From Desulfobacterales bacterium (GTDB taxonomy: Bacteria; Desulfobacterota; Desulfobacteria; Desulfobacterales; UBA11574): a stretch of DNA of 60,387 nucleotides. Shown here piece after piece: positions 13,990 through 51,773 of this stretch. The notes under the pieces are model-generated. The model was not told the DNA's origin, did not search any database, and was given only the letters and a program-made list of their open reading frames with translations. Location: assembly GCA_035529735.1 (NCBI GenBank), contig DATKWE010000107.1:1-60387 (forward strand). Reading direction: 5' to 3'. Numbering within the stretch: position 1 is the stretch's first letter; each line of letters begins with the position of its first letter. A program made the position numbers and the translations under genes.

Positions 13990-14064
13990 AGGCACGTAGC
14001 TCAGGGGGAGAGCGCTACCTTGACACGGTAGAGGTCGTTGGTTCAAATCCAATCGTGCCTACCA
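13990..14064 (+). tRNA. tRNA-Val (anticodon GAC), CCA encoded
   Basis: Hand-folded cloverleaf: acceptor AGGCACG/CGTGCCT, D arm GCTC-AGGGGGA-GAGC, anticodon arm CTACC-TTGACAC-GGTAG, T arm GTTGG-TTCAAAT-CCAAT, discriminator A, then CCA. Confidence 0.9.
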
Positions 14065-27660: not shown

Positions 27661-27688
27661 ACGTGTTGCAACACCGTCAATATTCGGG

Positions 27689-28663
27689 ATGCAACCAGAG
27701 GACATACCGTTTATGGCCCTTGATTCTGATCGCATAAAATGGCTTGAAAACCGGTTCGGAGACACCGTCAAATTTTGCGAACCCATGTCCGGACATACAT
27801 CATTGCGTGTCGGGGGGCCGGCAGAAGCTTTGGTGACGCCTGAAAACCTTGAAGATCTTAAAGCGCTGGTGGAATGGTCATGGAACAACGGACTTTCCTA
27901 TCTGATCATCGGCGAAGGCACCAATCTTCTGGTCAAGGACGGCGGCATCAAGGGAATTGTTATCGTGTTGACAAAATGTCTGAAGACCATCGTTCAGACA
28001 GGCATGGAAGCCGATGGCCTTATCGTTAGCGCCTCGGCAAGTGTCCGCATGCGATCCCTTTGCGCGTATGCACTGAAACAGGGCCTTGAAGGAATGAATT
28101 TTGCCCTGGGCATTCCAGGGACGGTTGGCGGAGGGATTATAATGAATGCCGGGACCTCCCATGGCGCCATGGAAAACGTCCTTGAATCCATCACCGTATT
28201 GCTGCCTACGGGTCGGACCCGAAGAATTCGGCGGGAACAGCTCGATTTTTCTTACAGAACGCTTTCATGGAACAGTGAGCTAACCGATGGTCATCGCGCA
28301 CAAACGGTTATATTAGACGGCTGCTTCTGTCTGCGTCCTTCGGATTCAGAAAAACTCAAAAAAGAGGCGCGAACAATTTTAAAAACACGCTGGAAAAAAC
28401 AGCCCATGGGCTGGCCAAGTGCAGGATGTTTTTTTAAAAATCCCTCGTCCGGGAAAACAGCGGGCCAACTTATTGAGATGGCCGGCCTAAAAGGAAAATC
28501 CATCGGCGGGGCAGAAATTTCATCCAAGCATGCCAATTTTTTTATAAACCGGCACAACGCATCGGCCGCAGACTTTCTGGCATTGATGGAACTGGCTGAA
28601 GAGACCGTATCAAACAAGTTCAACATTGACCTTAAAAGAGAGGTTAAGATTGTTGGGACGTAA
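27689..28663 (+). CDS. murB: UDP-N-acetylenolpyruvoylglucosamine reductase
   Basis: FAD-binding PCMH domain (SLRVGGPAE, GEGTNLL) and the C-terminal GAEISSKHANF motif. The listed start at 27605 overlaps murC by 56 nt. ATG at 27689 (or 27713/27644) is more plausible. Confidence 0.88.
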   Translation: MQPEDIPFMALDSDRIKWLENRFGDTVKFCEPMSGHTSLRVGGPAEALVTPENLEDLKALVEWSWNNGLSYLIIGEGTNLLVKDGGIKGIVIVLTKCLKTIVQTGMEADGLIVSASASVRMRSLCAYALKQGLEGMNFALGIPGTVGGGIIMNAGTSHGAMENVLESITVLLPTGRTRRIRREQLDFSYRTLSWNSELTDGHRAQTVILDGCFCLRPSDSEKLKKEARTILKTRWKKQPMGWPSAGCFFKNPSSGKTAGQLIEMAGLKGKSIGGAEISSKHANFFINRHNASAADFLALMELAEETVSNKFNIDLKREVKIVGT

Positions 28664-29504
28664 AGGCATCCGGAAAAATTATTACAAAAACAGTGCTGCC
28701 AGAAAGCGCAATAACATTATAACGCGCGTTATTTTCAGCATAAAAACAGCGACTGTCGGGACAATTTTGCTGTTGGTCAGCTTTCTTTTTATTTTTACCT
28801 ACGACGTTATAACCCAGTGCGATTATTTCAAGGCTGAAAGTCTGACGGTCGCCGGCGCTCATCGGCTCACAGAGGAACAGGTTTTGCAGCAGAGCCAGAT
28901 AACTAAAGGTATAAACATTCTTTCAGTAAATCTTTCAAGGGTTAGAAAGCGGCTCCTGGCACATTCATGGATCGAGGAGGCTGAAGTCAGCAGGGAACTT
29001 CCCACAGGAATCAGTATCAGAATAAAAGAGCAGCAGCCCCTCGCCATTTTAGACCTGGGTCGAAAATTTATCATCAATATCCATGGAGAGGTATTCAAAG
29101 AAATGGATGCCTCGGACCATTGCCGCCTGCCGGTTATTCGTGGGCTTGAATTTTCAGACATCAATGTACGGGGTGAATCCCGGAGCGTCCCTTTTAATGC
29201 GGTAATGACAATCTTAGCGCTGGGGAAAAAACCTGAAAGTGTTCTTCCCTGCAGGTTAATAAAAAAAATCAGTGTGGATCGAGAAATGGGTCTCACAATT
29301 TACGCGTTCGACCGCATCAAAGCCATAAAAATCGGGTACGATGATTATCCGAATAAGTATGAAATGCTCAAAAATGTGCTTTTTTATCTAAAAAAGAATG
29401 GAAGTTTTTCACACCTCGAATCCATTGATCTCAACAATTTAAATCGTATCGTAGTTAATCCTGCGAAAATAGAATCTGCTGCCGTAGGCCATAAGGAGGT
29501 TTAG
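28650..29504 (+). CDS. ftsQ: cell division protein FtsQ
   Basis: Single TM segment followed by POTRA and FtsQ domains. GAGAGG RBS lies 6 nt before the TTG at 28650; the maximal ORF starts at 28626 inside murB. Confidence 0.82.
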   Translation: MLGRKGIRKNYYKNSAARKRNNIITRVIFSIKTATVGTILLLVSFLFIFTYDVITQCDYFKAESLTVAGAHRLTEEQVLQQSQITKGINILSVNLSRVRKRLLAHSWIEEAEVSRELPTGISIRIKEQQPLAILDLGRKFIINIHGEVFKEMDASDHCRLPVIRGLEFSDINVRGESRSVPFNAVMTILALGKKPESVLPCRLIKKISVDREMGLTIYAFDRIKAIKIGYDDYPNKYEMLKNVLFYLKKNGSFSHLESIDLNNLNRIVVNPAKIESAAVGHKEV

Positions 29505-29505
29505 A

Positions 29506-30732
29506 ATGCAGGGACAGGAAAATATTATCGTCGGTCTTGATATTGGAACGACTAAAATTTGTGCCGTGGTCGGTGAAAAGACGGGAGATAAAATAAACGT
29601 CATCGGTATCGGAACACATCCTTCCATCGGGCTTCGGAAAGGCGTAGTGGTCAATATTGAATCCACCGTAGAATCGATACAAAAGGCGGTTGAAGAGGCG
29701 GAACTTATGGCGGGCTGTGAAATTTCATCGGTATACGCCGGAATCGCAGGCGGTCATATAACAGGGTTTAACAGTCGCGGAATCGTCGCCATTAAAGGGT
29801 CGGAAGTTATCCAGCAAGACGTGGACCGTGTTATCGATGCCGCACGTGCCGTCGCAATCCCCATGGATCGTGAAGTCATCCACGTGATTCCTCAGGAATT
29901 TATCATCGACGAGCAGGGCGGGATCCAGAATCCTGTGGGCATGTCCGGCGTAAGGCTGGAAGCTAAGATCCATATCGTGACCGGCGCTGTAACGTCTGCC
30001 CATAATATTGTGAAATGTGCAAACCGCTCAGGTCTTGATGTCTGTGATATTGTCTTGGAGCCGCTGGCTTCAGGTGAAGCCGTGCTCACCGACGAGGAGA
30101 AAGATGTGGGCACGGCACTTATAGACCTCGGCGGCGGAACGAGTGATCTTGCAATTTTTTCAGGGAAAAACATCAAGCACACCTTTGTTCTGGCCCTCGG
30201 TGGCAGCAATCTGACCAACGATATCAGCATCGGCCTGCGTGCATCCATGGCTGAAGCCGAAAAGATCAAGAGAAAATATGGCACCTGTGTTGCCATGAGC
30301 ATCAGTTCCGAAGAAACCATTGAAGTTCCCGGTATGGGCGGACGCAAACCCAGGAAGCTGCCAAGGCAGATCCTCGGTGAGATACTGGAACCTCGTGTGG
30401 AAGAGATTTTCACGCTGATAAAACGGGAAATCTTTCGTGCCGGAATGGATAAAGTTGTTACTTCCGGTGTAGTTTTAACCGGCGGGTCATCTCTGCTGGA
30501 AGGGGTAACGGATATTGCAGAGACGGTTTTCGATCTTCCCAGTCGGCTGGGCACGCCCAGGGGGATCAGCGGTCTTACGGATGTCGTCAATAATCCCATG
30601 TATGCGACAGCCGTCGGGCTCGTACTGTACGGTGCCAGAATTCAGCCCAAAAAGAAATTCAGGATTCGTGACTCAAATATTTTCAACCTTGTCATGATCC
30701 GGATGAAACGGTGGTTCAAGGAGGTCATCTGA
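29506..30732 (+). CDS. ftsA: cell division protein FtsA
   Basis: 408 aa with an actin-like ATPase fold (GLDIGTTKICAVVGE, DLGGGTSD) and a C-terminal amphipathic helix. Confidence 0.95.
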   Translation: MQGQENIIVGLDIGTTKICAVVGEKTGDKINVIGIGTHPSIGLRKGVVVNIESTVESIQKAVEEAELMAGCEISSVYAGIAGGHITGFNSRGIVAIKGSEVIQQDVDRVIDAARAVAIPMDREVIHVIPQEFIIDEQGGIQNPVGMSGVRLEAKIHIVTGAVTSAHNIVKCANRSGLDVCDIVLEPLASGEAVLTDEEKDVGTALIDLGGGTSDLAIFSGKNIKHTFVLALGGSNLTNDISIGLRASMAEAEKIKRKYGTCVAMSISSEETIEVPGMGGRKPRKLPRQILGEILEPRVEEIFTLIKREIFRAGMDKVVTSGVVLTGGSSLLEGVTDIAETVFDLPSRLGTPRGISGLTDVVNNPMYATAVGLVLYGARIQPKKKFRIRDSNIFNLVMIRMKRWFKEVI

Positions 30733-30802
30733 ACGGAGCTTTTAACGTATGTTCATCAAGGATAGAGGATAAAACCAAATATTGTAACAGGAGGTGGGGG
30801 AA

Positions 30803-31984
30803 ATGACGTTTACGTTAGTAGAAAACGACAATTATGCAAAAATCAAAGTTATCGGAGTTGGGGGAGCCGGCGGGAACGCGATCAACAACATGATCGATTC
30901 CGAGCTCCAGGGGGTAAATTTTATCGTTGCCAACACAGATTCCCAAGCCCTTGGAATCTCAAAGGCATCGATCAAAATTCAGATCGGTGAGCAGCTTACC
31001 CAGGGGCTTGGGGCCGGCGCCAACCCTCAAATCGGGAGGGAAGCGGCGCTGGAAAATTCGGAAGCCATAAAAAGTGCGCTGGAAGGCAGCCATATGGTGT
31101 TCATCACTGCAGGATTTGGCGGTGGAACCGGAACCGGCGCTGCGCCGGTGATTGCTGAAATCTGCAAAGAAATGGATGTGCTGACGGTTGCTGTGGTGAC
31201 AAAGCCTTTTTCATTTGAAGGCGGCAAAAGGGCCAAACAGGCCGAAGAAGGGATCAATGCTCTCAGAAAAGTTGCGGATACCGTCATCACGATACCCAAT
31301 GACAGACTGAGGGGCCTTGCTTCCAAAAATGCCAGAATGATCGATATGTTCAAGAAAGCCGATGAGGTTCTGCTCCATTCTGTCAAAGGCATCACCGATC
31401 TTATCATGATACCGGGACTGATCAATCTCGACTTTGCCGATGTTAAAACCATCATGTCCAAAGCCGGAATGGCCATTATGGGCATTGGTATCGCTAGAGG
31501 GGATAACCGCGCTATCGAGGCCGCCGAGCGTGCCATATCCCATCCGCTTCTTGAAGATATCTCCATTTCCGGAGCCAAGGGCGTTTTAATGAACATAACC
31601 AGTAACAGCGATTTGACCATGGAAGAAATGACCGAGGCTTCCGATCGGATATACAAAGAAGTCGGAAAAGATGCCGATATTATCTGGGGAACCGCCGTAG
31701 AAGACAGCATCGGTGATGAGATTCGTGTTACGGTCATTGCAACCGGAATCAATTCGGGTCCCGAAACCGGGATTAAAAATGAGCTCAGAGGCAAAGTCAG
31801 AGATATCACGATAGATGATTTGAACGATGCCGTAGATTATGATGAGCCGACGTTCATCCGCCGTAAACACGCGGTGGGTGAGTCGAGCGGTGCGACCTAC
31901 AGGGGATACAAGGGAATTGTCATCGACAATGCCGACCTCAGTGACCTTGATGTGCCGACATTTTTACGTAAAAAGGCAGACTAG
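30803..31984 (+). CDS. ftsZ: cell division protein FtsZ
   Basis: Tubulin signature GGGTGTGAAPV and the C-terminal peptide DLDVPTFLRKKAD. AGGAGG lies 8 nt before the ATG at 30803; the listed GTG at 30794 overlaps the RBS. Confidence 0.97.
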   Translation: MTFTLVENDNYAKIKVIGVGGAGGNAINNMIDSELQGVNFIVANTDSQALGISKASIKIQIGEQLTQGLGAGANPQIGREAALENSEAIKSALEGSHMVFITAGFGGGTGTGAAPVIAEICKEMDVLTVAVVTKPFSFEGGKRAKQAEEGINALRKVADTVITIPNDRLRGLASKNARMIDMFKKADEVLLHSVKGITDLIMIPGLINLDFADVKTIMSKAGMAIMGIGIARGDNRAIEAAERAISHPLLEDISISGAKGVLMNITSNSDLTMEEMTEASDRIYKEVGKDADIIWGTAVEDSIGDEIRVTVIATGINSGPETGIKNELRGKVRDITIDDLNDAVDYDEPTFIRRKHAVGESSGATYRGYKGIVIDNADLSDLDVPTFLRKKAD

Positions 31985-32059
31985 CTAACGAAAACGGGCG
32001 CATGATAACAACGGTTGGATGCCGATGAACGATAAAAATTCAGAAACGTCTGATAGCCA

Positions 32060-33808
32060 ATGGCAGGGAAAACTGAAAGATTTCAAAAAAAATTTGCCGA
32101 TCCGGAAATCGGTGCGATCCGCAAACGATGGGAAGGTCGCATCAAAGTTGCATTGGTATATCCCAACACCTATCATGTGGGAATGTCCAATCTCGGTTTT
32201 CAGGCGGTATACGAATTAATCAATAAGATTGAGCACGTCGTATGCGAACGCTCTTTTTTACCGAAAACTACCGGGAAAAAAGCAGATCGCATACTTACCG
32301 TGGAGTCCGGAAATCCAATTTCAAATTTCGACATCATTGCTTTTTCGGTCTCATTTGAAAATGACTATCCCAACCTCCTCACAATTCTCGATAAAGCAGG
32401 CCTCCCCCTGCTGTCTGATGACAGAGGAACCCCCCACCCCCTGGTGATTGCAGGGGGAGTTGCTTTATTATTAAATCCGGAGCCTTTGGCTCCGTTTATC
32501 GATTGTTTTCTGATGGGTGAAGCCGAAGCCATTCTGCCACGGTTTTTTGACACGGTTTCACCGGATGTTCTGGCTCAGAAAAGGAGATCGTGTTTAAAAA
32601 CCCTCGCCGGCGAAGTCCCCGGTATCTATGTTCCGACATTTTACAGAGCATCTTACCATTCGGACGGGACGCTGTGTGCATTTGAACCGGTATCCGACGT
32701 TCCGGCTAAAGTTGAACGCCAATATGTGGAAGATATCTCCCAGATTCCTATCTGCAGTAAAATCGTAACCCCGAACACCATCTTTGACAGTACATTTCTC
32801 ATTGAAGTCAGCAGAGGATGTCCCCATGGCTGCAGATTCTGCAGCACAGGATTTATTTACAGACCTCCGCGATTCAGAACCTTTTCACTTCTGGAGAAAT
32901 GCATGCAGAAGGGGGCGTTGATTACAGACAAAATTGGACTGGTGGGCGCTGCGGTTTCGGATCTTCCCGACCTAAACAAGCTTTGCCGCCAGAGCCTTGA
33001 AAAGGATATCCGAATATCCTTCAGCTCCCTGAGAGCCGATGCTTTTACACCTGAACTCCTTTCAGTCCTAAGGAAAAGCAGCGTCAAAACCGCAACCATC
33101 GCTCCGGAAGTTGGAACAGAACGTCTGCGCAGGGTGATTAATAAGGGTTTCACTGAAATAGATATTCTCGATGCCACCGAGGTACTGGTCGCCGGCGGTA
33201 TCCCCAACCTAAAACTGTATTTCATGATCGGTCTTCCCACCGAAACCATGGATGACATTGAAGCCATTGTTACCCTGTGTAAAAAGATAAAACACAGATT
33301 CCTCGAATCGAGCAGGGTCAGGAAACACATGGGGGAGATCACCGTCAGTCTCAGCAGTTTTGTCCCCAAACCGTTCACGCCGTTTCAATGGGTCGTACTG
33401 GATGATATTCATTTGCTAAAAGAAAAGATAAAAAAGATAAGGGGCGGCCTTAAGAGAGTGGCAAACATCCGCCTGCACGCGGATATTCCTCGCTGGGCTT
33501 ACATTCAGGCGCTGTTGTCACGCGGAGACCGAAACACTGCACAAATATTGTGGCTTGCGAATAAAAATCAAGGGAACTGGCCCAAGACACTCAAATCCTC
33601 TCCTGTAAATCCTGATTTTTATGTTCACAGGGAACGTCCTTTAGATGAATTGTTTCCCTGGGACTTTATCGATCATGGCATCCGCAAGTCTTTTCTCAAA
33701 AAGGAATACAAAAGAGCCTTGCAGGGGAAAACCTCCCCCCCATGTCCTATGGAATCCTGTCATATCTGTGGGGTGTGTAAAGAGAAGGGCAATTCGAGCT
33801 GCGCTTAA
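32060..33808 (+). CDS. B12-binding-like radical SAM protein (TIGR03960-type, uncharacterised)
   Basis: 582 aa with an N-terminal VALVYPNTYHVGMSNLGFQ signature and a CPHGCRFC radical SAM cluster motif. Confidence 0.85.
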   Translation: MAGKTERFQKKFADPEIGAIRKRWEGRIKVALVYPNTYHVGMSNLGFQAVYELINKIEHVVCERSFLPKTTGKKADRILTVESGNPISNFDIIAFSVSFENDYPNLLTILDKAGLPLLSDDRGTPHPLVIAGGVALLLNPEPLAPFIDCFLMGEAEAILPRFFDTVSPDVLAQKRRSCLKTLAGEVPGIYVPTFYRASYHSDGTLCAFEPVSDVPAKVERQYVEDISQIPICSKIVTPNTIFDSTFLIEVSRGCPHGCRFCSTGFIYRPPRFRTFSLLEKCMQKGALITDKIGLVGAAVSDLPDLNKLCRQSLEKDIRISFSSLRADAFTPELLSVLRKSSVKTATIAPEVGTERLRRVINKGFTEIDILDATEVLVAGGIPNLKLYFMIGLPTETMDDIEAIVTLCKKIKHRFLESSRVRKHMGEITVSLSSFVPKPFTPFQWVVLDDIHLLKEKIKKIRGGLKRVANIRLHADIPRWAYIQALLSRGDRNTAQILWLANKNQGNWPKTLKSSPVNPDFYVHRERPLDELFPWDFIDHGIRKSFLKKEYKRALQGKTSPPCPMESCHICGVCKEKGNSSCA

Positions 33809-39246: not shown

Positions 39247-39777
39247 TCACTTGAGGGTGTAGTTCTGGAGAAAAAAATCCAACTGGGATATCTGGTGTGG
39301 GGTCAATTCCTCAAACTGCAAACCTTGTTGCTTACTTTTTAAGAGGTTTGATGAGGGCTTCCTGACTGCCTGGGAAACCCAAACAGTATTAGCAGGGACC
39401 TTCTTCAAATAAAAACCATCTTGAACAAATAATATATCCAAATCAAACAATTTGTTATATTCGTCTTCGCCATCAATATAACAATAAACAAGCCCACCTT
39501 TGCTGATGTTAATGATTTGACCCATTTGGATAGTAGCAATGGAACCCTCATTCATGGGCATATCCGGAGCCTGTTCCTCATTTTCAGACGATGTTTTGAT
39601 CATTGCAGCAACTGCACCGCGTTTAACTTTGAATCGATGATGCTTCCTGCGCTCAATGAATTCTTTTCTGTTGTCCATAGCAGAATATTCTGATGTTGAA
39701 AAAACATCATTCGGCAATCTCATAGTATTTGATAGAAGGTTTGCGGAATCGCCCATAAATTTTATATTTTCCATCAT
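39247..39777 (-). CDS. PilZ domain protein
   Basis: 176 aa with RRKHHR and NISKGG motifs plus N- and C-terminal extensions. Confidence 0.75.
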   Translation of the reverse strand: MMENIKFMGDSANLLSNTMRLPNDVFSTSEYSAMDNRKEFIERRKHHRFKVKRGAVAAMIKTSSENEEQAPDMPMNEGSIATIQMGQIINISKGGLVYCYIDGEDEYNKLFDLDILFVQDGFYLKKVPANTVWVSQAVRKPSSNLLKSKQQGLQFEELTPHQISQLDFFLQNYTLK

Positions 39778-42827: not shown

Positions 42828-42900
42828 AGCATATTAATGCTTATAATTGTTTTTTGAGAATAATATTGCTCATTTTTATTAAAATCGGCATATTAATGCC
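42828..42900. promoter_or_regulatory. two 14-bp dyads AGCATATTAATGCT and GGCATATTAATGCC, candidate enhancer (UAS) sites
   Basis: An identical 12-mer GCATATTAATGC occurs at 42829 and 42888, 59 bp apart centre to centre, 93-152 bp upstream of the -24 element. Confidence 0.45.
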
Positions 42901-42984
42901 TAATTTTATGGGCCGTTTAAGATTTCTGTCGAAAAACTTATAAATTAATCAATAATTACTATCCGTTATCCGCATTTGTGGTGT

Positions 42985-43000
42985 TGGCATAAAATATGCT
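42985..43000 (+). promoter_or_regulatory. sigma-54 promoter TGGCATaaaataTGCT (-24 GG / -12 GC)
   Basis: GG at 42986-87 and GC at 42998-99 have the exact consensus spacing (GG-N10-GC). Lies about 100 nt upstream of the 43101 ATG and divergent from the activator gene. Confidence 0.7.
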
Positions 43001-43100
43001 TGAGCATTATCGATTTTGATGTCGAAAAAAATCCGCGTTTGGGTCGATTACGAACTTAACATGGTAAGAAAAAAATTAGAATAAAAGGAGAAATCTTTTA

Positions 43101-43526
43101 ATGAATCAAGTTGTGATGATAAAAAATCCTTTAGAATCAGAGTCCATTGAGCAGGTGTTGGCGCCGGATCTTCAGCCGTTCTGGGGGATCGCTTCTGCCA
43201 TCGATATTTACAACTGCGACCCGGATAAAATCCGGGACGATAAAACCATTCGCAGATTCGTGGTCGAGTTGTGTCATTTCATCGAAATGAAACGTTTCGG
43301 GGAGACCCAGGTCGTCCACTTCGGTGAAGACGAACGCGTAGCAGGCTATTCGATGGTTCAGCTGATCGAAACTTCTCTAATTTCCGCCCATTTTGCCAAT
43401 CTCACCGATACAACCTATCTGGATGTATTCAGCTGCAAGGCTTATGATCCGGAAAAGGTCCGGAGTTTTGCCCAAGACTTTTTCGGCGGAAGCCACAGCA
43501 TTCTAAACGTAACCTTGAGGCGGTAA
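43101..43526 (+). CDS. S-adenosylmethionine decarboxylase-like (SpeH/SpeD-fold, pyruvoyl-type) protein
   Basis: 141 aa. By-eye alignment to class-1 AdoMetDC: GYSMVQLIETSLISAHF...DVFSCKAYDP versus the ..ISESHLTIHTWPE..FTCG pattern. AGGAG RBS upstream. Confidence 0.75.
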   Translation: MNQVVMIKNPLESESIEQVLAPDLQPFWGIASAIDIYNCDPDKIRDDKTIRRFVVELCHFIEMKRFGETQVVHFGEDERVAGYSMVQLIETSLISAHFANLTDTTYLDVFSCKAYDPEKVRSFAQDFFGGSHSILNVTLRR

Positions 43527-43527
43527 T

Positions 43528-44496
43528 ATGGATACGGTGCGCGTATTTCAAGATCCTGATGTTTGCCGTGAGCTCTGGGAACGATTTTGGCCAAAGGCGT
43601 GTATTTTCGATCTGTGGCCGGTTAGAGCCTGTTTTATGAAACACTACCAGCGCCCGCCTTTTTTTATGTTGGCGGACGGAGGTCACTGGGAATCTCGTCT
43701 TTTGGCCCTCTCCTGGATCGAAGAGGAAGGGGTCTTCGGACACTTCCCGGGAGAAACATGGCAGGGAAAAACTTGGCTCGAGCAGAATAAAATCACCGGG
43801 ACCGGAAGACAATCCCTTCAAACCCTGGTGGACAACTTGCCGGAAAAATGTTTCATTCGTTATATCGACGGTGATTTTCTTCCCGCTTGGGATACCACTG
43901 TTTCCATAGATGAGATCGGATACCTCTTTTTTCCGAAACAGCATAACTTTTCATTTGAAAACTACAAGAACGTGTTTCCAAGAAAATCCCGCAAGAAGAT
44001 CGATCGGGAAATAAATCAACTTCATGCTCAAAAAGTCGAATTTCGTCACAACCATATGGCCGATATAAACCGGATGTTTGAGATGAACCTTTCGGCTTTC
44101 GGAGAAACGTCATACTTCCATGACCGCCGGTTTTTCAATGCTTTTGTCGATCTTATCACCTTGCTGGATCAAAAGAATCTTCTTCGGGTGACGTCGGTAA
44201 TCATCGGCGGCCGCTTGGCTGCCGTGGATGTGGGCGCCCTATGGAAAAACACCTATACGGTCATGGCCGGCGGTACAGATCCCGACTTTCCCGGCGTTGC
44301 CAAACTGATCAATTTTCATCATATCGAATGGGCATGTCGCCAGCGCCTGGCAGTCGTAGATTTTCTCTGTGGCGATTTCAACTGGAAGACGAAATTCCGT
44401 TTGCACCCGCGTCCCTTATATAAGATGTGCTCACCGGAAGTTGATGCCGCAGCCGAATTTCATGCCAAAGAGAGGATGCTGGGCTGTGCCGTCTGA
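43528..44496 (+). CDS. FemAB/CelD-like GNAT-fold acyltransferase (Acetyltransf_6-type)
   Basis: 322 aa. The C-terminal half (IIGGRLAAVDVGALWKNTYTVMAGGTDPDF..VAKLINFHHIEWACRQRLAVVDFLCGDFNWKTKF) matches the BioF2-like/CelD acetyltransferase pattern. 1-nt gap after the upstream stop. Confidence 0.7.
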   Translation: MDTVRVFQDPDVCRELWERFWPKACIFDLWPVRACFMKHYQRPPFFMLADGGHWESRLLALSWIEEEGVFGHFPGETWQGKTWLEQNKITGTGRQSLQTLVDNLPEKCFIRYIDGDFLPAWDTTVSIDEIGYLFFPKQHNFSFENYKNVFPRKSRKKIDREINQLHAQKVEFRHNHMADINRMFEMNLSAFGETSYFHDRRFFNAFVDLITLLDQKNLLRVTSVIIGGRLAAVDVGALWKNTYTVMAGGTDPDFPGVAKLINFHHIEWACRQRLAVVDFLCGDFNWKTKFRLHPRPLYKMCSPEVDAAAEFHAKERMLGCAV

Positions 44497-45757
44497 GACT
44501 CGTTTGATAGTGGTGGGCACGACCCCTGACTATATTGACTGGATCCGGCGGACATGTCCGCAAAGAGCCCTTTTCATCACGGACCCAACCGTTCGATCCA
44601 ATGCAAGGGAGCCTGCCCCCGCAAATCATGAGGAGGTCCAATGCGAACTGGCCGATAGCGAACAGGTCCGGAAGGCGGTGACACGTCACTTGCAACATTG
44701 GGGGATACGGGTGAACGGCGTCGCCTGCTTTGATTGCGAATCAATGGCCTTGGCTGCTTTGCTTGCTCAGGATTTTTCCGCAACTTTTCCGTCTCCATCC
44801 GCCGTAAACAACTGCCGGGACAAGCTCATTTCAAAAATCCTCTGGCAGCAGAACGGAATCCGTTGCCCTCGAATCGCGCCGGTCCGGCACGTGGAAGATG
44901 CGACAGCTTTTCTTTCAACCCTGGGGGGGGATTGCGTTCTCAAGCCGCTTTCCGGCAGTGGCAGCGAACTGGTTTTTCACTGCAGAACCGAACAAGAATG
45001 TCGCCGGGCATTCACCGTCATTCAAGACGGTCTGCAACAGCGAAAAAATAACCGCCTCTACAGCGGGGTTTCCGGAGATTCGCCCCCAATAATTGTCGAA
45101 GAGTTCGTCGATGCTCCTGAGTTTAGCTGTGATTTTTTGATGGATGATGATGAGGTTACCCTTATCCGCCTGGCGCGAAAAATCCCTTCATCTGACGGAC
45201 CGTTCGGCACCACCATGGGGTATGTGCTTGTCGACACCCTGCCTCAAGGAATCGATCTTGGAAGATTTTGTCGATATCTGGCCCAGGGAGCCGGGGCTCT
45301 TGGAATCGACAGATCCATCTGTATGGCCGATTTTATGGTGCACAGCGGGGAAATTATTCTCCTTGAAATTGCCCCCCGACCGGGAGGTGACTGTCTTCCG
45401 GCGCTGATCCGCAGCGCACTTCAATTGGATATCCTCGCCCTGACCCTTGACGTGGCCCAGAAGCGCCCGCTGCGCATCGGCCCGTTTCGGCCGTCCCAGC
45501 CCTTTGTGGGTTTGCGTATCCATGCCCGACAGGGCGGTATTTTCAGACGCATCAACTGTGAGGCTGTGAAAGGGAACCCGCGGATAAAAGAAATCAATGT
45601 CGTGCGGCACCCCGGTGATATCATCCGCATGCCTCCCGAAGATTACGATTCTTTCCTTCTGGGAAACATCATTTTCACTCCCGAAAACGGGATGGATCTC
45701 AGGAGCGAGTGCAGCCGGATCTTGGACGGCCTGGCCGTGGAGATTGAATCACCATGA
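44486..45757 (+). CDS. ATP-grasp domain ligase
   Basis: Pre-ATP-grasp Rossmann start RLIVVGTTPDY, then CVLKPLSGSGSELVF, IVEEFV and ILLEIAPRPGGD motifs. The start is GTG at 44486 (GAGG 10 nt upstream) or ATG at 44462. The listed 44369 start overlaps the upstream gene by 128 nt. Confidence 0.83.
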   Translation: MPSETRLIVVGTTPDYIDWIRRTCPQRALFITDPTVRSNAREPAPANHEEVQCELADSEQVRKAVTRHLQHWGIRVNGVACFDCESMALAALLAQDFSATFPSPSAVNNCRDKLISKILWQQNGIRCPRIAPVRHVEDATAFLSTLGGDCVLKPLSGSGSELVFHCRTEQECRRAFTVIQDGLQQRKNNRLYSGVSGDSPPIIVEEFVDAPEFSCDFLMDDDEVTLIRLARKIPSSDGPFGTTMGYVLVDTLPQGIDLGRFCRYLAQGAGALGIDRSICMADFMVHSGEIILLEIAPRPGGDCLPALIRSALQLDILALTLDVAQKRPLRIGPFRPSQPFVGLRIHARQGGIFRRINCEAVKGNPRIKEINVVRHPGDIIRMPPEDYDSFLLGNIIFTPENGMDLRSECSRILDGLAVEIESP

Positions 45758-47052
45758 CTCACGTAACACCACAAAACGATGACACATCCATGCCTTCTGA
45801 AGAGATGCCGCTCCTTCCGCCCGATGAACTGATTCCCTTTGTCGAGTATTATTTCAGTCGTCGGGAAGCCTATCTACAACAGCTCAGGAATCACACCGCT
45901 TTCTTATACGTATTAGAGCCAAACGTATTGATTCGGCGGGCCGATCAGTTTCAGAAAGCGTTTCGCCGCGTGCTGCCCGACTCGGCCTTCTATTATGCCG
46001 TCAAAAGCAACAATCATCCCGAAGTCGCTCGAACCCTTCTGAAATCAGGATTCGGACTGGATGTGTCCAGCGGTTTGGAGTTGCAGATGGCCCTCGATCT
46101 TAACGCCCGAGAGATTGTTTTCAGCGGACCCGGTAAAACGCCCGAGGAGCTGGAGTTGGCTGCACGAAACAGCAGCCGGGTGACAGTACTTCTGGACAGT
46201 TTCAACGAACTGCATCGATTGGAAAAGGTTGCCGCATCCATAAAAACAAAGGTGCGCGCCGGTGTGCGACTGACCACCAATCCCAACGGCTTGTGGCGAA
46301 AGTTCGGAGTACCGCCGGATCAATTCCTCGAATTCTGGCGAATTGCTCGGACATGCCCCCATGTATCTCTAAAAGGAATTCAGTTTCATACCAGCTGGAA
46401 TCTAACGGCGACGTCCCAAACGGATTACATCGGCTTTTTGGGCAAGTTGCTGTCCGGGATGCCGGATAAACTTAACGAGAACCTGACATTTATCGACGTT
46501 GGCGGCGGGTACTGGCCGAAGCAAGGCGAATGGCTTCATCCCCCAGCAGGGCCACAAGAGATGCTTCAGAAGATGGGGCACCGTACCCCCGATGTATCAA
46601 AGGCTCACTACCGATGTCCCGCCGAACCCATTGAAGTTTTTGCTCAAAAAATCGGCCAGGCGATACAACGCCATATCTTTCCCTTGACGGCGTGCAGAAT
46701 TTTCTTTGAACCCGGCCGCTGGATCTGCAACGATTCAATGCACCTGCTAATGACCGTAGTCGACCAAAAGGGAACGGATCTGGTCATCACGGATGCCGGC
46801 ACGAACGCCATCGGCTGGGAACGTTTTGAAACCGATTATTTTCCCGTCCTGAATTTGACGCGGCCGGCCGTGACAGAAAAGCCCTGCTACATTCTCGGCT
46901 CTTTGTGCACCCCTCATGACGTATGGGGATTCAGCTATTTCGGCCAAGACATACGCGTTGGCGACGTGCTCATGATTCCGACCCAGGGCGCGTATACTTA
47001 CAGCCTTCGGCAGAATTTCATTAAACCTATCCCCAAGGTCGTGATCCTGTAG
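45754..47052 (+). CDS. type-III-fold PLP-dependent decarboxylase (Orn/DAP/Arg decarboxylase family 2)
   Basis: 432 aa with FYYAVKSNNHPEV (PLP lysine), DVGGGY, EPGRW and GSLCTPHDVWG motifs. ATGA start/stop overlap with the ATP-grasp gene. Confidence 0.9.
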   Translation: MTHVTPQNDDTSMPSEEMPLLPPDELIPFVEYYFSRREAYLQQLRNHTAFLYVLEPNVLIRRADQFQKAFRRVLPDSAFYYAVKSNNHPEVARTLLKSGFGLDVSSGLELQMALDLNAREIVFSGPGKTPEELELAARNSSRVTVLLDSFNELHRLEKVAASIKTKVRAGVRLTTNPNGLWRKFGVPPDQFLEFWRIARTCPHVSLKGIQFHTSWNLTATSQTDYIGFLGKLLSGMPDKLNENLTFIDVGGGYWPKQGEWLHPPAGPQEMLQKMGHRTPDVSKAHYRCPAEPIEVFAQKIGQAIQRHIFPLTACRIFFEPGRWICNDSMHLLMTVVDQKGTDLVITDAGTNAIGWERFETDYFPVLNLTRPAVTEKPCYILGSLCTPHDVWGFSYFGQDIRVGDVLMIPTQGAYTYSLRQNFIKPIPKVVIL

Positions 47053-47086
47053 ACGGCACGCCGCGGGGTAACACGGAGTGCCCCGA

Positions 47087-48113
47087 CTAAACCCGGTAAA
47101 CCATAAGGTTTTCATTGCGGCCTTTCACCCGGGTTGGGGGGAGGGGGATCAGGCCATAGTCTTGGGTGAGATGCTGGGTGGTCTGATGGCTGATTAAAAT
47201 ATCATCATCGTATTTTTTACACAAATCAGCCACCCGAGATGCCACGTTGACGGTGTCACCGACCAGACAGTAGGTCTGACGTTCCGTCGACCCGACGACA
47301 CCGGCCAGGGCGGGGCCCGAGTGTATGCCGATACCGTGGCGAAACGGGAATTGTTCAAGACCCTGAAACCTGGCGTTCAATTCCGTCAAGGCCCGGCGCA
47401 TTTCCAATGCGGCCTGGACAGCCTTGTCCGGATGATGATCATCCTGAAAGGGCGCGCCAAAGACGGCCTCTATCTCATCACCCACGTACTGGAGAACCAC
47501 CCCGTCGAACCGGTGTATTATATCGGTCATGGACGAATAGTACTCATTGATCCGGGCGAACACCACCTGGGGGTGATTCTGTTCGGCAAAACTGGTGAAG
47601 TTGCGCAGGTCCGAAAAAAGCAAGGTCACATCTTTCATCTCGCCGTCCATCTTAATCCGGTCGCTCAAGATCAGTTCGGCCACTGAAGGGTGAACATGCC
47701 GCCCGAAGGCGTCTTCAACCTTCTGGCGCATCATCTTCAATGTCAAGTGGGTTTTGACCCGTGCCTGGACAATGGGGGGGCTGAAAGGCTTGGTGATGTA
47801 ATCCACGGCCCCGATCTCCAACCCTTTGGTTTCGTCTGATTCATCGGATTTGGCCGTAACGAAGATGATGGGAATGTCCCGGGTTTGGGGATCGGCTTTG
47901 AGTCGGCGGCAGACCTCGTACCCGTCCATGTCCGGCATCATAACATCCAGTAGAATTAGATCGGGACGGCTCGTTTTGATATCTTCCAGGGCCGATTCGC
48001 CATCCATGGCCACACTGACCTTATAATGGTCCGCGAGTGTTTCCTACCAGAATATCGATATTGGCTTCAGTATCGTCGACGACCATTATCCTCATGTTGG
48101 AAAAATCAGACAT
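47087..48113 (-). pseudogene. response-regulator receiver / class III nucleotidyl cyclase, interrupted by a 1-nt frameshift
   Basis: The 308-aa ORF starts mid-REC domain. Upstream, MSDFSNMRIMVVDDTEANIDILV runs in the +1 frame and stops after GNTRGPL. Deleting one G of the GG (plus-strand CC at 48043-48044) restores ..[19 protein letters not shown]... The cyclase domain has [17 protein letters not shown] and GDTVNVASR motifs. Confidence 0.8.
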
Positions 48114-48283: not shown

Positions 48284-49177
48284 TTATATCTCATCTATAG
48301 AAGCGGTTTGAAAGAGTTTTTTGGCCTGATAAGAACTGCGTACCAACGGACCGCTTGCAACTTCTGTAAAACCCATATCAAGGGCGATTTTACGCCAGTC
48401 GGAAAATTCTTCCGGTGGTACAAAGCGGTCAACCGACAGGTGCGCTTTGGTGGGTTGAAGGTATTGACCCAGGGTCAGCAATCGGCACCCCGCCTCAAAA
48501 AGATCTTCAAGTGTGTTATGGATTTCTTCGGGAAGTTCTCCAAGGCCGAGCATTAGGCCCGACTTTGTTATGACTTTGGGACTGTCAGTGACCACCTGTT
48601 TTAAAAGGTCGAGGGAACGCCGGTAGATTCCTTCCGGCCGGACGGCGGCATAAAGACGTCGAACGGTCTCTATGTTATGATTCAATACATTGGGGTGCGT
48701 CTGTACAATACTTTTAACCGCATCTTCATCCCCTTGGAAGTCAGGAATTAACAACTCGATTCGAACATCCGGAACCCTCTTCCGGATCTCATTTACAGTC
48801 CGGACAAAAAATGAGGCGCCGCCGCCAGGAAGATCGTCCCGGGTCACCGAAGTGATGACCGCATAGTCTATCTGCAGATTTTGAACGGTTCCGGCAATCC
48901 TGGCAGGCTCATCGGGATCCGGAGGGCTGTCCGGGCCGTGGGCGACTGCGCAGAATCGACAATTGCGCGTGCAGCGATCGCCCATAATCATGAAGGTCGC
49001 GGTTTTTTGGGAAAAACACTCCCATATATTGGGGCATTGCGCCGCCTGACAAACGGTATGAATTTGTTCTTTGTTTAACCGGGCGCTGAACTCTTCGTGG
49101 ACGGATCCTGACGGAAGCCTCTGTTTGAGCCAGGAGGGTTTTTTAAGCCGCTTGTTTGATTTTTGGCGCTGAATCAT
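48284..49177 (-). CDS. lipA: lipoyl synthase
   Basis: CPNIWEC (auxiliary cluster) and CTRNCRFC (radical SAM) motifs. ATG at 49177 with GAGG 5 nt upstream; an alternative start at 49201 overlaps lipB. Confidence 0.93.
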   Translation of the reverse strand: MIQRQKSNKRLKKPSWLKQRLPSGSVHEEFSARLNKEQIHTVCQAAQCPNIWECFSQKTATFMIMGDRCTRNCRFCAVAHGPDSPPDPDEPARIAGTVQNLQIDYAVITSVTRDDLPGGGASFFVRTVNEIRKRVPDVRIELLIPDFQGDEDAVKSIVQTHPNVLNHNIETVRRLYAAVRPEGIYRRSLDLLKQVVTDSPKVITKSGLMLGLGELPEEIHNTLEDLFEAGCRLLTLGQYLQPTKAHLSVDRFVPPEEFSDWRKIALDMGFTEVASGPLVRSSYQAKKLFQTASIDEI

Positions 49178-49179
49178 TG

Positions 49180-49917
49180 CTACCTCGACAGCGGCAAACA
49201 AAAGGGGTCTGTTTCCCTGAATTTTAGAAGGTAATCCAGTTCCGACAGATCTGTCATCACCAGATCAAATCCGAAAAAAGATTCATAATGATGCCGAACG
49301 GCCTTGCGCACTTCGTGCATGGATATTTTCTGAGAAAGTTCCTGCTTCATGGAAGTGACGCCGACATCCTGAAGGCCGCATGGATGTATCCAATCAAAAG
49401 GTTTCAGCGATAGGTTGACGTTCAAGGCAAAACCGTGAAAGCAGACGGCCCGTCGAACAGAGATGCCGACGCTTCCGAGTTTATGGTTTGAAACCCAGAT
49501 TCCTCTGTTGACAGATTTTCTTTCGGCCTTTATTCCCCAGTCTGAAGCCACCCGGATCATGATATCTTCAAGACCTTCAACGTACTCTATGACTTTCAAC
49601 CCGGCTTTGTTCAGGTCGATGATGGGGTATACCACCAACTGGCCCGGCCCGTGAAACGTGATGTCGCCGCCCCGTTCCACCCGGATAACCGGAATTTCCA
49701 TTTTTTCAAGAAAATCTTGGGGCACCTTCAAGTTCTTAAGGGCACCTTTTCGACCCAAAGAAAAAACAGGCGGATGCTCAAGGATTAATACAACGTCACT
49801 TTCAATGACGTTGTTGTGTCTGGCGCACACAAGATCCCGCTGCAGATTCAGCGCTTTTCTGTATTCTAATTGGGGCAGATCCACACAGAGACACCGTTGA
49901 TCTCTAAGGCCGGGCAT
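49180..49917 (-). CDS. lipB: lipoyl(octanoyl) transferase
   Basis: 245 aa with RGGDITFHGPGQLV, the KLGSVGI lysine motif and the PCG cysteine motif. Confidence 0.93.
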   Translation of the reverse strand: MPGLRDQRCLCVDLPQLEYRKALNLQRDLVCARHNNVIESDVVLILEHPPVFSLGRKGALKNLKVPQDFLEKMEIPVIRVERGGDITFHGPGQLVVYPIIDLNKAGLKVIEYVEGLEDIMIRVASDWGIKAERKSVNRGIWVSNHKLGSVGISVRRAVCFHGFALNVNLSLKPFDWIHPCGLQDVGVTSMKQELSQKISMHEVRKAVRHHYESFFGFDLVMTDLSELDYLLKFRETDPFCLPLSR

Positions 49918-50429: not shown

Positions 50430-51773
50430 TCAAAATATAGATGATATCCCCTTTCTCCGGCGATACAGCCGTGCAATGGTATCCGGTGGGATTCCCATGT
50501 AATAGGCGATGATAATGAGCTGGTTGATCAGGGTCGTTTTCAGGATTCCGAAGTTTTGCCATCGCCGGGACGATGTTAAAACCGATGCGGATACCGTGAT
50601 GATTTCTCCTTTTTTTCGTAATCGCCGGATCAGCTCAAAATCTTCCATGATCGGAAAATCGGAAAATCCTCCCGCCGCATGAAAAACCCTGGACAGCATA
50701 AAAATCGCTTGATCACCGTAAGGTGTTCTCAGGCATCGGGAGCGCCAGTTTGCAATGCGCTCGATGAGCCGAAGCGCCGGGGTCGGGGCATCGATGCGCA
50801 GCTCGAAGGCTCCGGCGGCGATGCCGGGTCGGGCTAAACTGCGGAGGACGAGCCGGTCAAAACTTTTCGGCAGCCGTGTATCTGCATGGAGAAAAAGCAG
50901 CACATCCCCGGTAGCTTCAGCGGCCCCCCGGTTCATTTGTTTAGACCGTGGGGGCAAAACGTTGATCACTTTTGCTCCGAGTGATTGGGCGATCGACACG
51001 GTATTGTCTCGACTGCCTCCGTCTGCGACAATGACCTGTATGTTGTTTTCATGGCCGATACTCAAAAGGGTTTCAGCAATGTTGTCGGCTTCGTTGAGGG
51101 CCGGTATGATCACCGAAATGTTTCCGGGTATGAAATCATGATGGTTCAGAATTTGGGAACGTTTCCAGATCGACAGATCTTCAGGCTGATCCACATCTTC
51201 CAGTTCATCAACAAGGGAAAAGCTCAATCCAAGGCCTTTTGCAACGTCTAAGGTTTTACGCAGAACATCACGCCTTCCCCAGGTTATCCCGGAAAATAGA
51301 TGGTCCATGGCCGATGAAAGTGAAGCGCTTTGTAACCCGATTAAATAATATCCCCCGTCTTTGGCCGGACCGATCACCATGTTTTTCTGTTTCAGGGTGT
51401 CAAACGCTGTTTGAATGACAGTGTCTGTTATATCCGGAATATCCGTGCCGATAAGAACCGCTGCGTCCGCCCCGGATCGAAAGGCATCCTCAAAGGCACG
51501 TTTCATTCGCAGTCCCAGATGGCCGATACCCTGGGGCTGGTAATCGAGATCCGGACCGAGCCAGTTTTTCATTAAATGTTCATTGCCGCCGTCATAACAG
51601 ATCTCAATGGTTAACGCGTTTGATGTTGATAATCGCTTTAACTGAGCCAGGGTATGTTCGGTCATTTTGCGATGGAGATCTGCAGAACCTTTTGCTCCGA
51701 GCACCGGAATGAGCCGGGTCTTGGTTGTTCCCGTTTCCGGATAGCGGGTGAAGACAATCAGCTTTTTTTTCAC
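50430..51773 (-). CDS. fusion of a TIGR04282-like (DUF2064) transferase and a TIGR04283-like family-2 glycosyltransferase
   Basis: 447 aa. The N-terminal half has LIVFTRYPETGTTKTRLIPVLG, typical of DUF2064. The C-terminal half has VIIPALNEADNI..VADGGSRDNT..RSKQMNRGA..LFLHADTRLP..TPYGDQAIF..IMEDFEL. Confidence 0.83.
   Translation of the reverse strand: MKKKLIVFTRYPETGTTKTRLIPVLGAKGSADLHRKMTEHTLAQLKRLSTSNALTIEICYDGGNEHLMKNWLGPDLDYQPQGIGHLGLRMKRAFEDAFRSGADAAVLIGTDIPDITDTVIQTAFDTLKQKNMVIGPAKDGGYYLIGLQSASLSSAMDHLFSGITWGRRDVLRKTLDVAKGLGLSFSLVDELEDVDQPEDLSIWKRSQILNHHDFIPGNISVIIPALNEADNIAETLLSIGHENNIQVIVADGGSRDNTVSIAQSLGAKVINVLPPRSKQMNRGAAEATGDVLLFLHADTRLPKSFDRLVLRSLARPGIAAGAFELRIDAPTPALRLIERIANWRSRCLRTPYGDQAIFMLSRVFHAAGGFSDFPIMEDFELIRRLRKKGEIITVSASVLTSSRRWQNFGILKTTLINQLIIIAYYMGIPPDTIARLYRRRKGISSIF

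Follow-up and report, generated by a model that had tools for sequence, protein, structure and literature searches.

Several known biosynthetic modules first conjugate an amino acid and then decarboxylate the conjugate. For example, FigA and FigC (FslA and FslC) act in this order in the synthesis of rhizoferrin in Francisella, a logic that yields a putrescine-type amide without free putrescine (PMC7857480), and a ligase step likewise precedes the decarboxylase SbnH of staphyloferrin B. In butirosin biosynthesis, the ATP-grasp enzyme BtrJ and the clade-2 pyridoxal 5′-phosphate (PLP)-dependent decarboxylase BtrK act on a substrate held as a thioester on BtrI, an 87-aa carrier protein, and acyl transfer follows. 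The clade-2 decarboxylases that act on conjugates include FigC, SbnH, AcsE, MccE and BtrK. Clade-2 enzymes other than the diaminopimelate (DAP) and D-ornithine decarboxylases have been argued to be likelier to act in specialised metabolism (PMC7857480). Ornithine can also be decarboxylated by pyruvoyl enzymes: the C-terminal domains of the SpeD1SpeD2 proteins of Desulfotignum phosphitoxidans and Ca. Omnitrophica are L-ornithine decarboxylases (kcat/Km of 3600 and 600 per M per s, respectively), for which the published table lists activity on neither L-Arg nor L-Lys (PMC10407285). Here, we describe a cassette of four tightly packed genes at 43101-47052 (+ strand) of contig DATKWE010000107.1 (assembly GCA_035529735.1), from an uncultured Desulfobacterales lineage, whose decarboxylases resemble enzymes of these systems and which is accompanied by its own divergently encoded sigma-54 activator. 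The whole stretch analyzed, 60,387 nt, is referred to as the window.

The cassette encodes, in this order, a SpeD-like protein, a FemX-like protein with a tandem-GNAT fold, an ATP-grasp protein and a PLP-dependent decarboxylase (Table 1), and with its regulator spans about 5.9 kb. Using an alignment of homologues of the GNAT protein to scan one genome per species, we identified relatives in at least 321 of 185,579 species-representative genomes, mostly those of marine and sediment sulfate reducers. All locus counts given below rest on 81 loci (80 fetched with 10-kb flanks, plus the window; individual loci are designated L002, L003 and so on), in which genes were counted by tblastn and by all-against-all clustering of open reading frames (ORFs). 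Most of these loci come from metagenome-assembled genomes of Desulfobacterales or other Thermodesulfobacteriota, whereas Pirellulales, Treponemataceae and Verrucomicrobiota are each the label of a single locus and Nitrospirae/Nitrospiraceae that of two. Besides the Thermodesulfobacteriota, the set covers Nitrospirota, Planctomycetota, Spirochaetota and Verrucomicrobiota. Two carriers are cultured, Desulfosarcina alkanivorans PL12 (L055) and Desulfogranum marinum DSM 2058 (L059), and neither has the exact gene set of the window. The order GNAT, ATP-grasp, PLP decarboxylase never varies, the activator is always divergent, and the complete set is present in about 72 of the 81 loci, with the cases where the ATP-grasp, activator or decarboxylase gene is missing being mostly contig ends. 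Outside the cassette, no real gene family is common to more than 18 loci; the flanks are thus unrelated, and the module travels as activator plus operon. The expectation that all four genes would co-occur as a unit thus stands for three of the enzymes and the activator, but not for the SpeD-like gene, which is absent from 30 loci. In one of these (L031), the two termini of a SpeD-like protein are fused in an ORF of 69 aa from which the catalytic core is missing, a decayed remnant indicating that the accessory gene has been lost there. Judged from these alignments, the conserved unit is the activator, a promoter with phased dyads, and the GNAT, ATP-grasp and PLP decarboxylase genes, with the SpeD-like gene as an optional part.

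A sequence-only reading of the window had described the four genes as translationally coupled behind an AGGAG ribosome-binding site, had assigned each to a family by eye, and had placed them under a -24/-12 element with exact spacing, two identical upstream dyads and a divergent, cognate-looking activator gene, and this description was confirmed. At the first junction, the TAA stop codon (43524-43526) is followed by a single base (43527) and the ATG at 43528; at the second, the TGA (44494-44496) overlaps a gene that can start at GTG 44486, for which a GAGAGGA ribosome-binding site lies 10 nt upstream (44469-44475); and at the third, the two genes share an ATGA at 45754-45757. The exact overlaps depend on the choice of start because gene callers differ, and tight packing holds under every choice: the ATP-grasp gene has alternative in-frame starts at ATG 44462 and ATG 44444 (the ORF map also opens the frame at 44369) and its product is called as 423, 431 or 437 aa on identical metagenome copies, and the PLP decarboxylase is called from 45754 (432 aa) or 45790 (420 aa) on such copies. 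Identical copies of the GNAT gene occur on six metagenome contigs. All four family assignments pass the Pfam gathering thresholds (SpeD-like protein, PF02675, 76 bits; GNAT, PF13480, 81 bits; ATP-grasp, PF13535, 51 bits; PLP decarboxylase, PF02784, 95 bits, and PF00278, 30 bits). No intrinsic terminator is predicted after 47052, and the terminator-like and sigma-70-like matches in this region are at the level expected by chance.

The fourth gene bears on the chemistry that the cassette may carry out. Its product contains all of the motifs customary in alanine-racemase-fold decarboxylases (AVKSN, HTSWN, GGGYW, EPGRW, CTPHD and GAYTYS), as read by eye from the sequence and the family alignment, but falls well short of NCBIfam cut-offs, with 131 bits against a cut-off of 297.9 for lysA (TIGR01048), 95 against 500 for FslC (NF041039) and 82 against 478 for TIGR03099, and with scores far below the speA and nspC cut-offs too. 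When a profile of the family was compared with the Protein Data Bank (PDB), the best solved relatives were FigC/FslC, an N-citrylornithine decarboxylase (129 bits), followed by BtrK, which decarboxylates glutamate thioesterified to a carrier protein (120 bits), and SbnH, an N-citryl-diaminopropionate decarboxylase (120 bits), with the best DAP decarboxylase at 117 bits. The invariant loop C385-T-P-H388-D389 aligns with CTPED of BtrK, CTPKD of SbnH and CMQHD of FigC, and at this loop position H357 of FigC and K347 of SbnH contact the acyl moiety of the substrate (PMC7857480). The shared Cys-loop and, by a small margin, the profile scores suggest that the enzyme may group with FigC, SbnH and BtrK, enzymes that decarboxylate amino acids already conjugated.

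These comparisons also bear on whether the cassette has a joint product at all. It could be a set of adjacent primary-metabolism genes, comprising a lysA-type decarboxylase, a SpeD or ornithine decarboxylase, an unrelated ligase and an acetyltransferase; lysA is indeed the best NCBIfam match of the fourth gene, the S-adenosylmethionine decarboxylase (AdoMetDC) equivalog is the sole match of the first, and public annotations name that first gene 'S-adenosylmethionine decarboxylase'. We regard such a chance assembly as very improbable, as both matches are far under their cut-offs (28.5 bits against 75.65 for the AdoMetDC equivalog TIGR03330), as gene order, spacing, activator and promoter are conserved across phyla whereas flanking genes are not, and as no aminopropyltransferase or other polyamine gene is linked to the cassette. 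In addition, DAP decarboxylases have CESGD after the catalytic Cys position, where the cassette enzyme has the CTPHD loop.

The third gene product is, in profile searches, of the L-amino-acid-ligase type. Its family profile matches the structural-genomics protein 4DIM (1.5e-26) and the L-amino acid ligases BL00235 (3VOT, 1.2e-24), 4WD3 (1.6e-11) and BacD (2e-11), whereas entries of the RimK/LysX type are weak (8e-7 to 3e-3), so that its best characterized relatives are enzymes that join free amino acids. No RimK match was found in Pfam, and no graspetide ligase is among the PDB matches listed. A single-sequence AlphaFold2 model was unusable (mean predicted local distance difference test, pLDDT, 38). 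One Nitrospiraceae locus (L080) carries the cassette without the usual type of ATP-grasp gene; a convergent cluster there encodes an N-formylglutamate amidohydrolase-like protein, a GCS2 carboxylate-amine ligase, an ATP-grasp protein of the RLAN-RimK type and a C39-like peptidase, and may be a different ligase set for the same module.

The first gene product belongs to a very conserved family, the 51 members of which keep the motif IETS-LISAHF...DVFSC, with Ser (Ser91 in the window protein, at the IETS|L site), His at +5 and Cys at +20. This spacing matches S63, H68 and C83 of the Thermotoga maritima AdoMetDC, residues that are essential for self-processing and catalysis (PMC10407285). We compared the protein with the assayed SpeD1SpeD2 domains as printed in Supplementary Figure S5 of the same study (Li et al. 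2023, PMC10407285): over 79 aa of an intact line, it is 53% identical to the domain from Ca. Omnitrophica, and its identity to the D. phosphitoxidans domain is 59% with the raw text obtained by optical character recognition (OCR) and 66% with four OCR-dropped letters restored by hand. Because the Ser/His/Cys spacing is kept and identity to assayed ornithine decarboxylase domains reaches 53-66%, the protein is probably a SpeDC-type pyruvoyl L-ornithine decarboxylase that makes putrescine. This fits, and sharpens, the precedent invoked in the sequence-only reading, that SpeD homologues have been neofunctionalized into ornithine/arginine decarboxylases. Like SpeDC, the window protein retains the processing and catalytic residues and, by eye, has Gln, Thr, Phe and Tyr in the order described as diagnostic of this group in PMC10407285. 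Its setting is different: the SpeDC genes published so far neighbour genes of polyamine metabolism (speD/speE, casdh/casdc, hss), whereas in the window the partners within the sigma-54 operon are the GNAT, ATP-grasp and clade-2-like PLP decarboxylase genes. A single-sequence search of the PDB with this protein found nothing meaningful.

The second gene product belongs to a small family, for which 583 representatives were found in 1.84 billion proteins at E<=1e-3. It has no match among the NCBIfam models and, searched as a family profile, no significant one in the PDB. An AlphaFold2 model built with 23 sequences (mean pLDDT 82) showed a tandem-GNAT architecture, and in a Foldseek search of this model against the PDB the top 22 matches were all aminoacyl-tRNA-dependent transferases except 2hqy, a protein of unknown function. 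These transferases are the streptothricin-type peptide synthases Sbb17 and Sba18, FemX, and MprF/aaPGS (E of 1e-11 to 1e-7), with query template modelling (TM) scores of 0.47-0.59 and sequence identities of 8-14%. The modelled protein thus shares the tandem-GNAT fold of these enzymes, a class that also includes VlmA, another aminoacyl-tRNA-dependent amide-forming transferase, but is only distantly identical to them, and tandem GNATs that use acyl-CoA match too, more weakly. On this model, the protein is clearly of the FemX-like tandem-GNAT class, and its acyl donor may be aminoacyl-tRNA or acyl-CoA. A 752-aa relative (P0250) has Acetyltransf_6 followed by ATP-grasp in one polypeptide, either a natural fusion or a sequencing frameshift, and its LAL_C2 match of 28.9 bits is just below the cut-off of 29.4. 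A more distant relative (P0290) lies in an archaeal context beside an Lhr-type helicase gene and was set aside as uninformative.

A FemX-like fold could also point to the cell envelope. In this explanation, a precursor of peptidoglycan or of a polysaccharide would receive an amino acid from the FemAB-like protein, the ATP-grasp enzyme would act as a ligase of the D-Ala-D-Ala type, and a diamine (putrescine, cadaverine or lysine from the decarboxylases) would be attached to the envelope, with the FemAB-like and decarboxylase genes linked to exosortase A as the analogue. The FemAB/CelD-like nature of PF13480, the high rank of FemX and MprF in the structural search, the weak similarity of the ATP-grasp protein to D-Ala-D-Ala ligases, the partial match to TIGR03099, the PEP-CTERM response regulator TIGR02915 among the many matches of the activator, and the position of the cassette near the end of the dcw cluster in the lineage of the window are all compatible with it. 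The exosortase A loci (TIGR03019/TIGR03099) do resemble the cassette in the uncharacterized pairing of a FemAB-like gene with a DAP-decarboxylase-like gene and in having a sigma-54 activator as regulator. This precedent, which had been offered in the sequence-only reading, nevertheless failed on inspection: the TIGR03099 score is far below its cut-off, TIGR02915 reaches 308 bits against 503, TIGR03019 has no match at E<=0.01, and no exosortase or PEP-CTERM genes are linked to the cassette or conserved beside it. The exosortase A-associated ligase is, in addition, AMP-forming and not an ATP-grasp enzyme. Since, further, the cassette is not consistently accompanied by any glycosyltransferase, flippase or Mur gene, and proximity to dcw is seen in the window and L003 alone, we consider an envelope function quite improbable.

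Control of the operon by sigma-54 and the adjacent activator has strong comparative evidence from these sequences. The element TGGCATAAAATATGCT is the sole match to TGGCAY-N5-WTGCW on either strand of the window, where 0.2 matches are expected. The dyad GCATATTAATGC has exactly two exact copies in the window; if one mismatch is tolerated, the expectation is 0.4 matches, and 7 of 100 shuffles gave two or more. Both elements are more than chance occurrences. Across the related loci, 66 of 71 intergenic regions have a GGYA-N7-TGC element ahead of the first gene, and in 60 of 68 loci this element is in turn preceded by GYA-N6-TRC dyads, for the most part at distances of about 100 bp (98-103) and about 130 bp, and often with further dyads about 280 and 330 bp upstream. 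The two dyads of the window, 98 and 157 bp from the promoter, are in this comparison the local version of the GYA-N6-TRC site. The sequence features of a sigma-54 operon are in place, with a correctly positioned GG-N10-GC element, an adjacent AAA+ activator gene and upstream dyads. The activator matches PF00158 (226 bits), AAA_lid_14 and HTH_8 in Pfam and reaches the cut-off of no NCBIfam equivalog; its homologues, 53-97% identical, are encoded divergently beside the cassette in about 72 of the 81 loci. Residues 1-130 form a receiver-like N-terminal domain with no Response_reg match in Pfam (E<=0.01). In the family alignment, read by eye, Glu54 occupies the position of the phospho-acceptor Asp (74% of 72 homologues have Glu there) and the acidic pair of the N-terminus is lacking, so that this domain looks like a non-phosphorylatable pseudo-receiver. 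Because of this, and because no kinase gene is conserved within the 10-kb flanks of the 81 loci, the signal to the activator is probably not delivered by phosphorelay. None of these comparisons favours the nitrogen- or stress-type control suggested in the sequence-only reading. No riboswitch or other RNA family was found by Rfam in the leader and intergenic region, the only match in the window above gathering threshold being a tRNA. A binding site for integration host factor was considered and dropped, as its strict consensus occurs between dyads and promoter in 5 of 68 loci only and not in the window.

Table 1. Features of the cassette, its control region and its surroundings, with genes of related loci referred to in the text
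Feature	Position	Strand	Loci (of 81)	Remark
Distal dyad GCATATTAATGC	42829-42840	.		Exact 12-bp palindrome, candidate activator-binding site
Proximal dyad GCATATTAATGC	42888-42899	.		98 bp upstream of GG of the -24 element
-24/-12 promoter element TGGCATAAAATATGCT	42985-43000	+		Sigma-54-type, GG-N10-GC spacing
Ribosome-binding site AGGAG	43086-43090	+		10 nt before ATG 43101, read from sequence
SpeD-like pyruvoyl decarboxylase, 141 aa	43101-43526	+	51	Accessory gene of cassette
FemX-like tandem-GNAT transferase, 322 aa	43528-44496	+	81	Core gene
L-amino-acid-ligase-type ATP-grasp, 423 aa from GTG 44486	44486-45757	+	74	Core gene
Alanine-racemase-fold PLP decarboxylase, 432 aa	45754-47052	+	72	Core gene
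Sigma-54 enhancer-binding activator, 477 aa	41185-42618	-	73	Divergent
tRNA gene	13990-14061	+		Ordinary context
murB-ftsQ-ftsA-ftsZ (dcw end), then 582-aa radical-SAM protein	27605-33808	+		Radical_SAM_N2
PilZ-domain protein	39247-39777	-		Upstream of cassette
Cys-rich ORF, 223 aa	40323-40994	+
Response regulator fused to adenylate/guanylate cyclase domain	47087-48013	-		Convergent, 34 nt past cassette end
Lipoyl synthase and lipoyl(octanoyl) transferase	48284-49917	-		Ordinary context
DUF2064-glycosyltransferase-2 fusion protein	50430-51773	-		Ordinary context
dcw/radical-SAM block in L003	14289-20957	-		Adjoins cassette
SpeD-like remnant in L031	about 9780-9990	+		69-aa ORF
Exporter-type gene in L047	8636-9925	+		Flanks enzyme genes
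Exporter-type genes in L077	51-2246; 4573-6228	+		Flank enzyme genes
Small ORF in L040	9722-9955	+		First gene behind promoter
Convergent cluster in L080	12865-17004	-		Nitrospiraceae
C39-like peptidase in L040	13575-14291	+
C39-like peptidase in L003	13518-14243	-
C39-like peptidase in L060	7652-8389	+
C39-like peptidase in L080	16264-17004	-

The window has the end of the dcw cluster on one side of the cassette and lipA-lipB on the other, with signalling genes around the cassette. The same dcw/radical-SAM block adjoins the cassette in L003, on the other side and in the opposite orientation, which indicates a local rearrangement. Apart from identical metagenome copies, the closest relative (L036) is the only other locus in which the genes for the cyclase fusion and the PilZ-domain protein neighbour the cassette, and they are outside the conserved module. 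The Cys-rich ORF is 67-91% identical in L003, L004, L006 and L036 and has no Pfam or NCBIfam match. The G+C content is 53-54% over the ATP-grasp, PLP decarboxylase and convergent cyclase genes (window 44001-48000), compared with 44-48% in the surroundings.

Many of the related loci contain additional genes that may bear on the nature of the substrate. In 34 of the 81, the operon opens with an ORF of 50-85 aa placed after the sigma-54 promoter, for example, in L013, L017, L019, L025, L028, L035, L038, L040, L041, L055, L057, L074 and L079, both with and without the SpeD-like gene. Its product is very charged, with an acidic N-terminus, a basic C-terminus and the core K(K/R)SGKR(S/F)HR.KT.K(D/E)(D/E).W. 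Differences at codon positions are concentrated at the third (1749, against 562 at the first and 653 at the second), an excess indicating that the ORF is under coding selection and translated. It has no Pfam family, and a homologue search returned four proteins, among them one whose source label, 'nitrogen fixation protein FixH', seems to be an error. The small ORF is absent from the other 47 loci, including the window, where a six-frame hidden Markov model search of all 60 kb gave a best E of 5.6; several of these loci have leaders of just 48-90 nt, which leave no room for it. In addition, a stand-alone C39-like cysteine peptidase (PF13529/PF03412) is encoded directly downstream of the cassette in 18 of the 81 loci, the window not being among them. 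In 12 loci it forms the fifth gene of the operon, and 11 of these have the small ORF as well; it is convergent in six, namely the five closest relatives of the window (L002-L006) and L080. In L003, the convergent gene adjoins the radical-SAM gene and ftsZ, and for this reason, and because of its absence from the window, we dropped the peptidase as a core part of the module.

These genes raise the alternative that the enzymes modify a ribosomal peptide or small protein, with the small ORF as substrate or scaffold. The ATP-grasp and GNAT enzymes would then add or cross-link residues, the PLP enzyme would decarboxylate an appended residue, and the C39-like peptidase would release or trim the product, as in graspetide, scaffold-peptide or amino-group-carrier chemistry, and the peptide gene of the window would lie elsewhere in its genome. 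The position of the small ORF between promoter and first enzyme gene, its conserved core under coding selection and its company with an in-operon peptidase all favour this explanation, as does the fact that FemX-like folds include protein aminoacyl-transferases. The T.K...W(E/D) part of the small ORF also recalls TxKYPSDWE(D/E), which we take to be the microviridin core. What makes a peptide-directed pathway unlikely, in our judgement, is that the small ORF is missing from more than half of the loci and from the entire window, with some leaders too short for it, and that the ATP-grasp profile favours free-amino-acid ligases (1e-24 to 1e-11) over RimK/LysX; in L003 the convergent peptidase may not belong to the cassette. 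The tail of the small ORF past the conserved Trp varies from 2 to 25 residues, which argues against a fixed acceptor at the C-terminus, as in LysW or RimK substrates; a LysW-like carrier role was dropped on this ground, and by eye the peptide has no Cys or phosphopantetheine-type motif.

Among the closest described systems, microviridin-type graspetide clusters share with the cassette an ATP-grasp enzyme and a GNAT and, with some of its relatives, a small ORF and a C39-like peptidase. They differ from it in that the window ATP-grasp is of the free-amino-acid-ligase type and its GNAT is a FemX-like tandem, and in that a precursor-like ORF is absent from 47 of the 81 loci, the window included. 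Membership among the MdnB/MdnC-type systems was rejected on the scores to RimK/LysX and the lack of a precursor-like ORF in the window. To our knowledge, decarboxylases are not part of graspetide clusters.

The statement in the sequence-only reading that the operon encodes no carrier protein, precursor peptide or exporter holds for the window and needs qualification beyond it. No acyl carrier protein is present in the window or conserved in the 81 loci, but the small ORF of 34 loci is a possible exception as regards the precursor, and genes of the major facilitator superfamily or ATP-binding cassette exporter type directly flank the enzyme genes in the two examined loci without the activator, from Treponemataceae and Verrucomicrobiota (L047 and L077). 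The transporters beside these two loci fit a small exported or imported molecule.

We propose that the cassette is a self-contained sigma-54 module that makes a small, nitrogen-rich, amide-linked metabolite on ornithine or putrescine, a reading to which we give an even chance. The gene families, the conservation of module and promoter, and the relatedness of the first gene to assayed ornithine decarboxylases are observed directly; what we infer is which substrates and acyl donor are used, in which order the steps run, what is made and what signal induces the operon. The divergent activator would bind the phased GYA-N6-TRC dyads and open the -24/-12 promoter. The ATP-grasp enzyme would then use ATP to join a carboxylate and an amine, leaving one alpha-amino-acid centre free, either by placing an acyl or aminoacyl group onto the side-chain delta-amine of ornithine, or by joining the side-chain carboxyl of Glu or Asp to putrescine made by the product of the first gene. 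The former option needs no free putrescine and thus fits the 30 loci without the SpeD-like gene. The PLP decarboxylase would strip the alpha-carboxylate from the conjugate and expose a new primary amine, and the FemX/Sbb17-like GNAT would acylate an amine, most likely with an aminoacyl group from aminoacyl-tRNA. Where its gene is present, the pyruvoyl ornithine decarboxylase would supply free putrescine. The order of ligation before decarboxylation is suggested because FigA/FigC, the ligase step before SbnH, and BtrJ/BtrK share this logic. The product of ligation, decarboxylation and aminoacylation would be an N-acylated or aminoacylated putrescine-type amide, on which our judgement is balanced evenly.

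Several points weigh against this proposal. FigC, BtrK and SbnH exceed the best DAP decarboxylase by just 3-12 bits in the profile comparison; the TM scores of the GNAT model are moderate, with acyl-CoA-using tandem GNATs also matching at E near 1e-7; and the D. phosphitoxidans sequence behind the higher identity value was rebuilt from a figure, the uncorrected text giving 59% and the intact Ca. Omnitrophica line 53%. The proposal also leaves unexplained why a pathway that decarboxylates conjugates would need a decarboxylase of free ornithine, the window encodes no exporter, the small ORF and C39-like peptidase fit a peptide-directed pathway at least as well, and the pathway is known here from genes and models alone. 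A further step, which we think doubtful, would be that the product is an undescribed class of metabolite, an aminoacylated or peptidyl diamine such as an aminoacyl-capped amide analogue of spermidine or homospermidine, and that in the lineages with the small ORF and C39-like peptidase the same enzymes build on a ribosomal peptide; if so, one sigma-54 module would link small-molecule polyamine chemistry with peptide-scaffolded biosynthesis. The probability left over we assign to explanations outside those considered here.

If the proposed amide pathway is correct, hundreds of species share a dedicated, tightly regulated route to a metabolite based on ornithine or putrescine. It would give pyruvoyl ornithine decarboxylases their first role beyond core polyamine synthesis, add an ATP-grasp-based member to the ligate-then-decarboxylate family, so far made up of siderophores and butirosin, and be a new use for a FemX-like, possibly tRNA-dependent, transferase. 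The small size of the module and its two cultured carriers make it directly testable, and the co-occurring small charged protein poses a separate question.

No curated family model or solved-structure annotation describes the four-gene combination, and nothing relevant came up in literature searches on the gene set, on SpeDC outside its published contexts or on decarboxylases in graspetide clusters. The view that no characterized pathway has this four-part composition is upheld in that lysA, FslC, TIGR03099 and SAM_DCase are all far below cut-off. In its proposed mode of action, the cassette comes closest to the modules for rhizoferrin, staphyloferrin B and butirosin, in which ligation comes before decarboxylation. 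As in the two siderophore systems, an amino acid would be ligated and then decarboxylated as a conjugate, and the window decarboxylase has, like its best solved relative FigC, a His three residues after the catalytic Cys. In the FigA and SbnH systems, however, the ligase is a siderophore synthetase of the NIS type (independent of nonribosomal peptide synthetases) and the acyl group is citrate, whereas the window ligase is an ATP-grasp enzyme, and neither siderophore system has a FemX-like transferase, a pyruvoyl ornithine decarboxylase or sigma-54 control. The butirosin set BtrI/BtrJ/BtrK/BtrH is alike in combining an ATP-grasp enzyme with a clade-2 PLP decarboxylase ahead of an acyl transfer, and this precedent from the sequence-only reading has gained weight from the BtrK match, the shared CTP.D loop of this second-best solved relative and the conjugate-acting nature of the other relatives. 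It is unlike the cassette in that no carrier corresponding to BtrI is present in the window or conserved, and in that the window transferase is a tandem GNAT and not BtrH-like. The cassette is set apart from these modules by its type of ligase, the added FemX-like transferase, the probable pyruvoyl ornithine decarboxylase, and a sigma-54 activator of its own.

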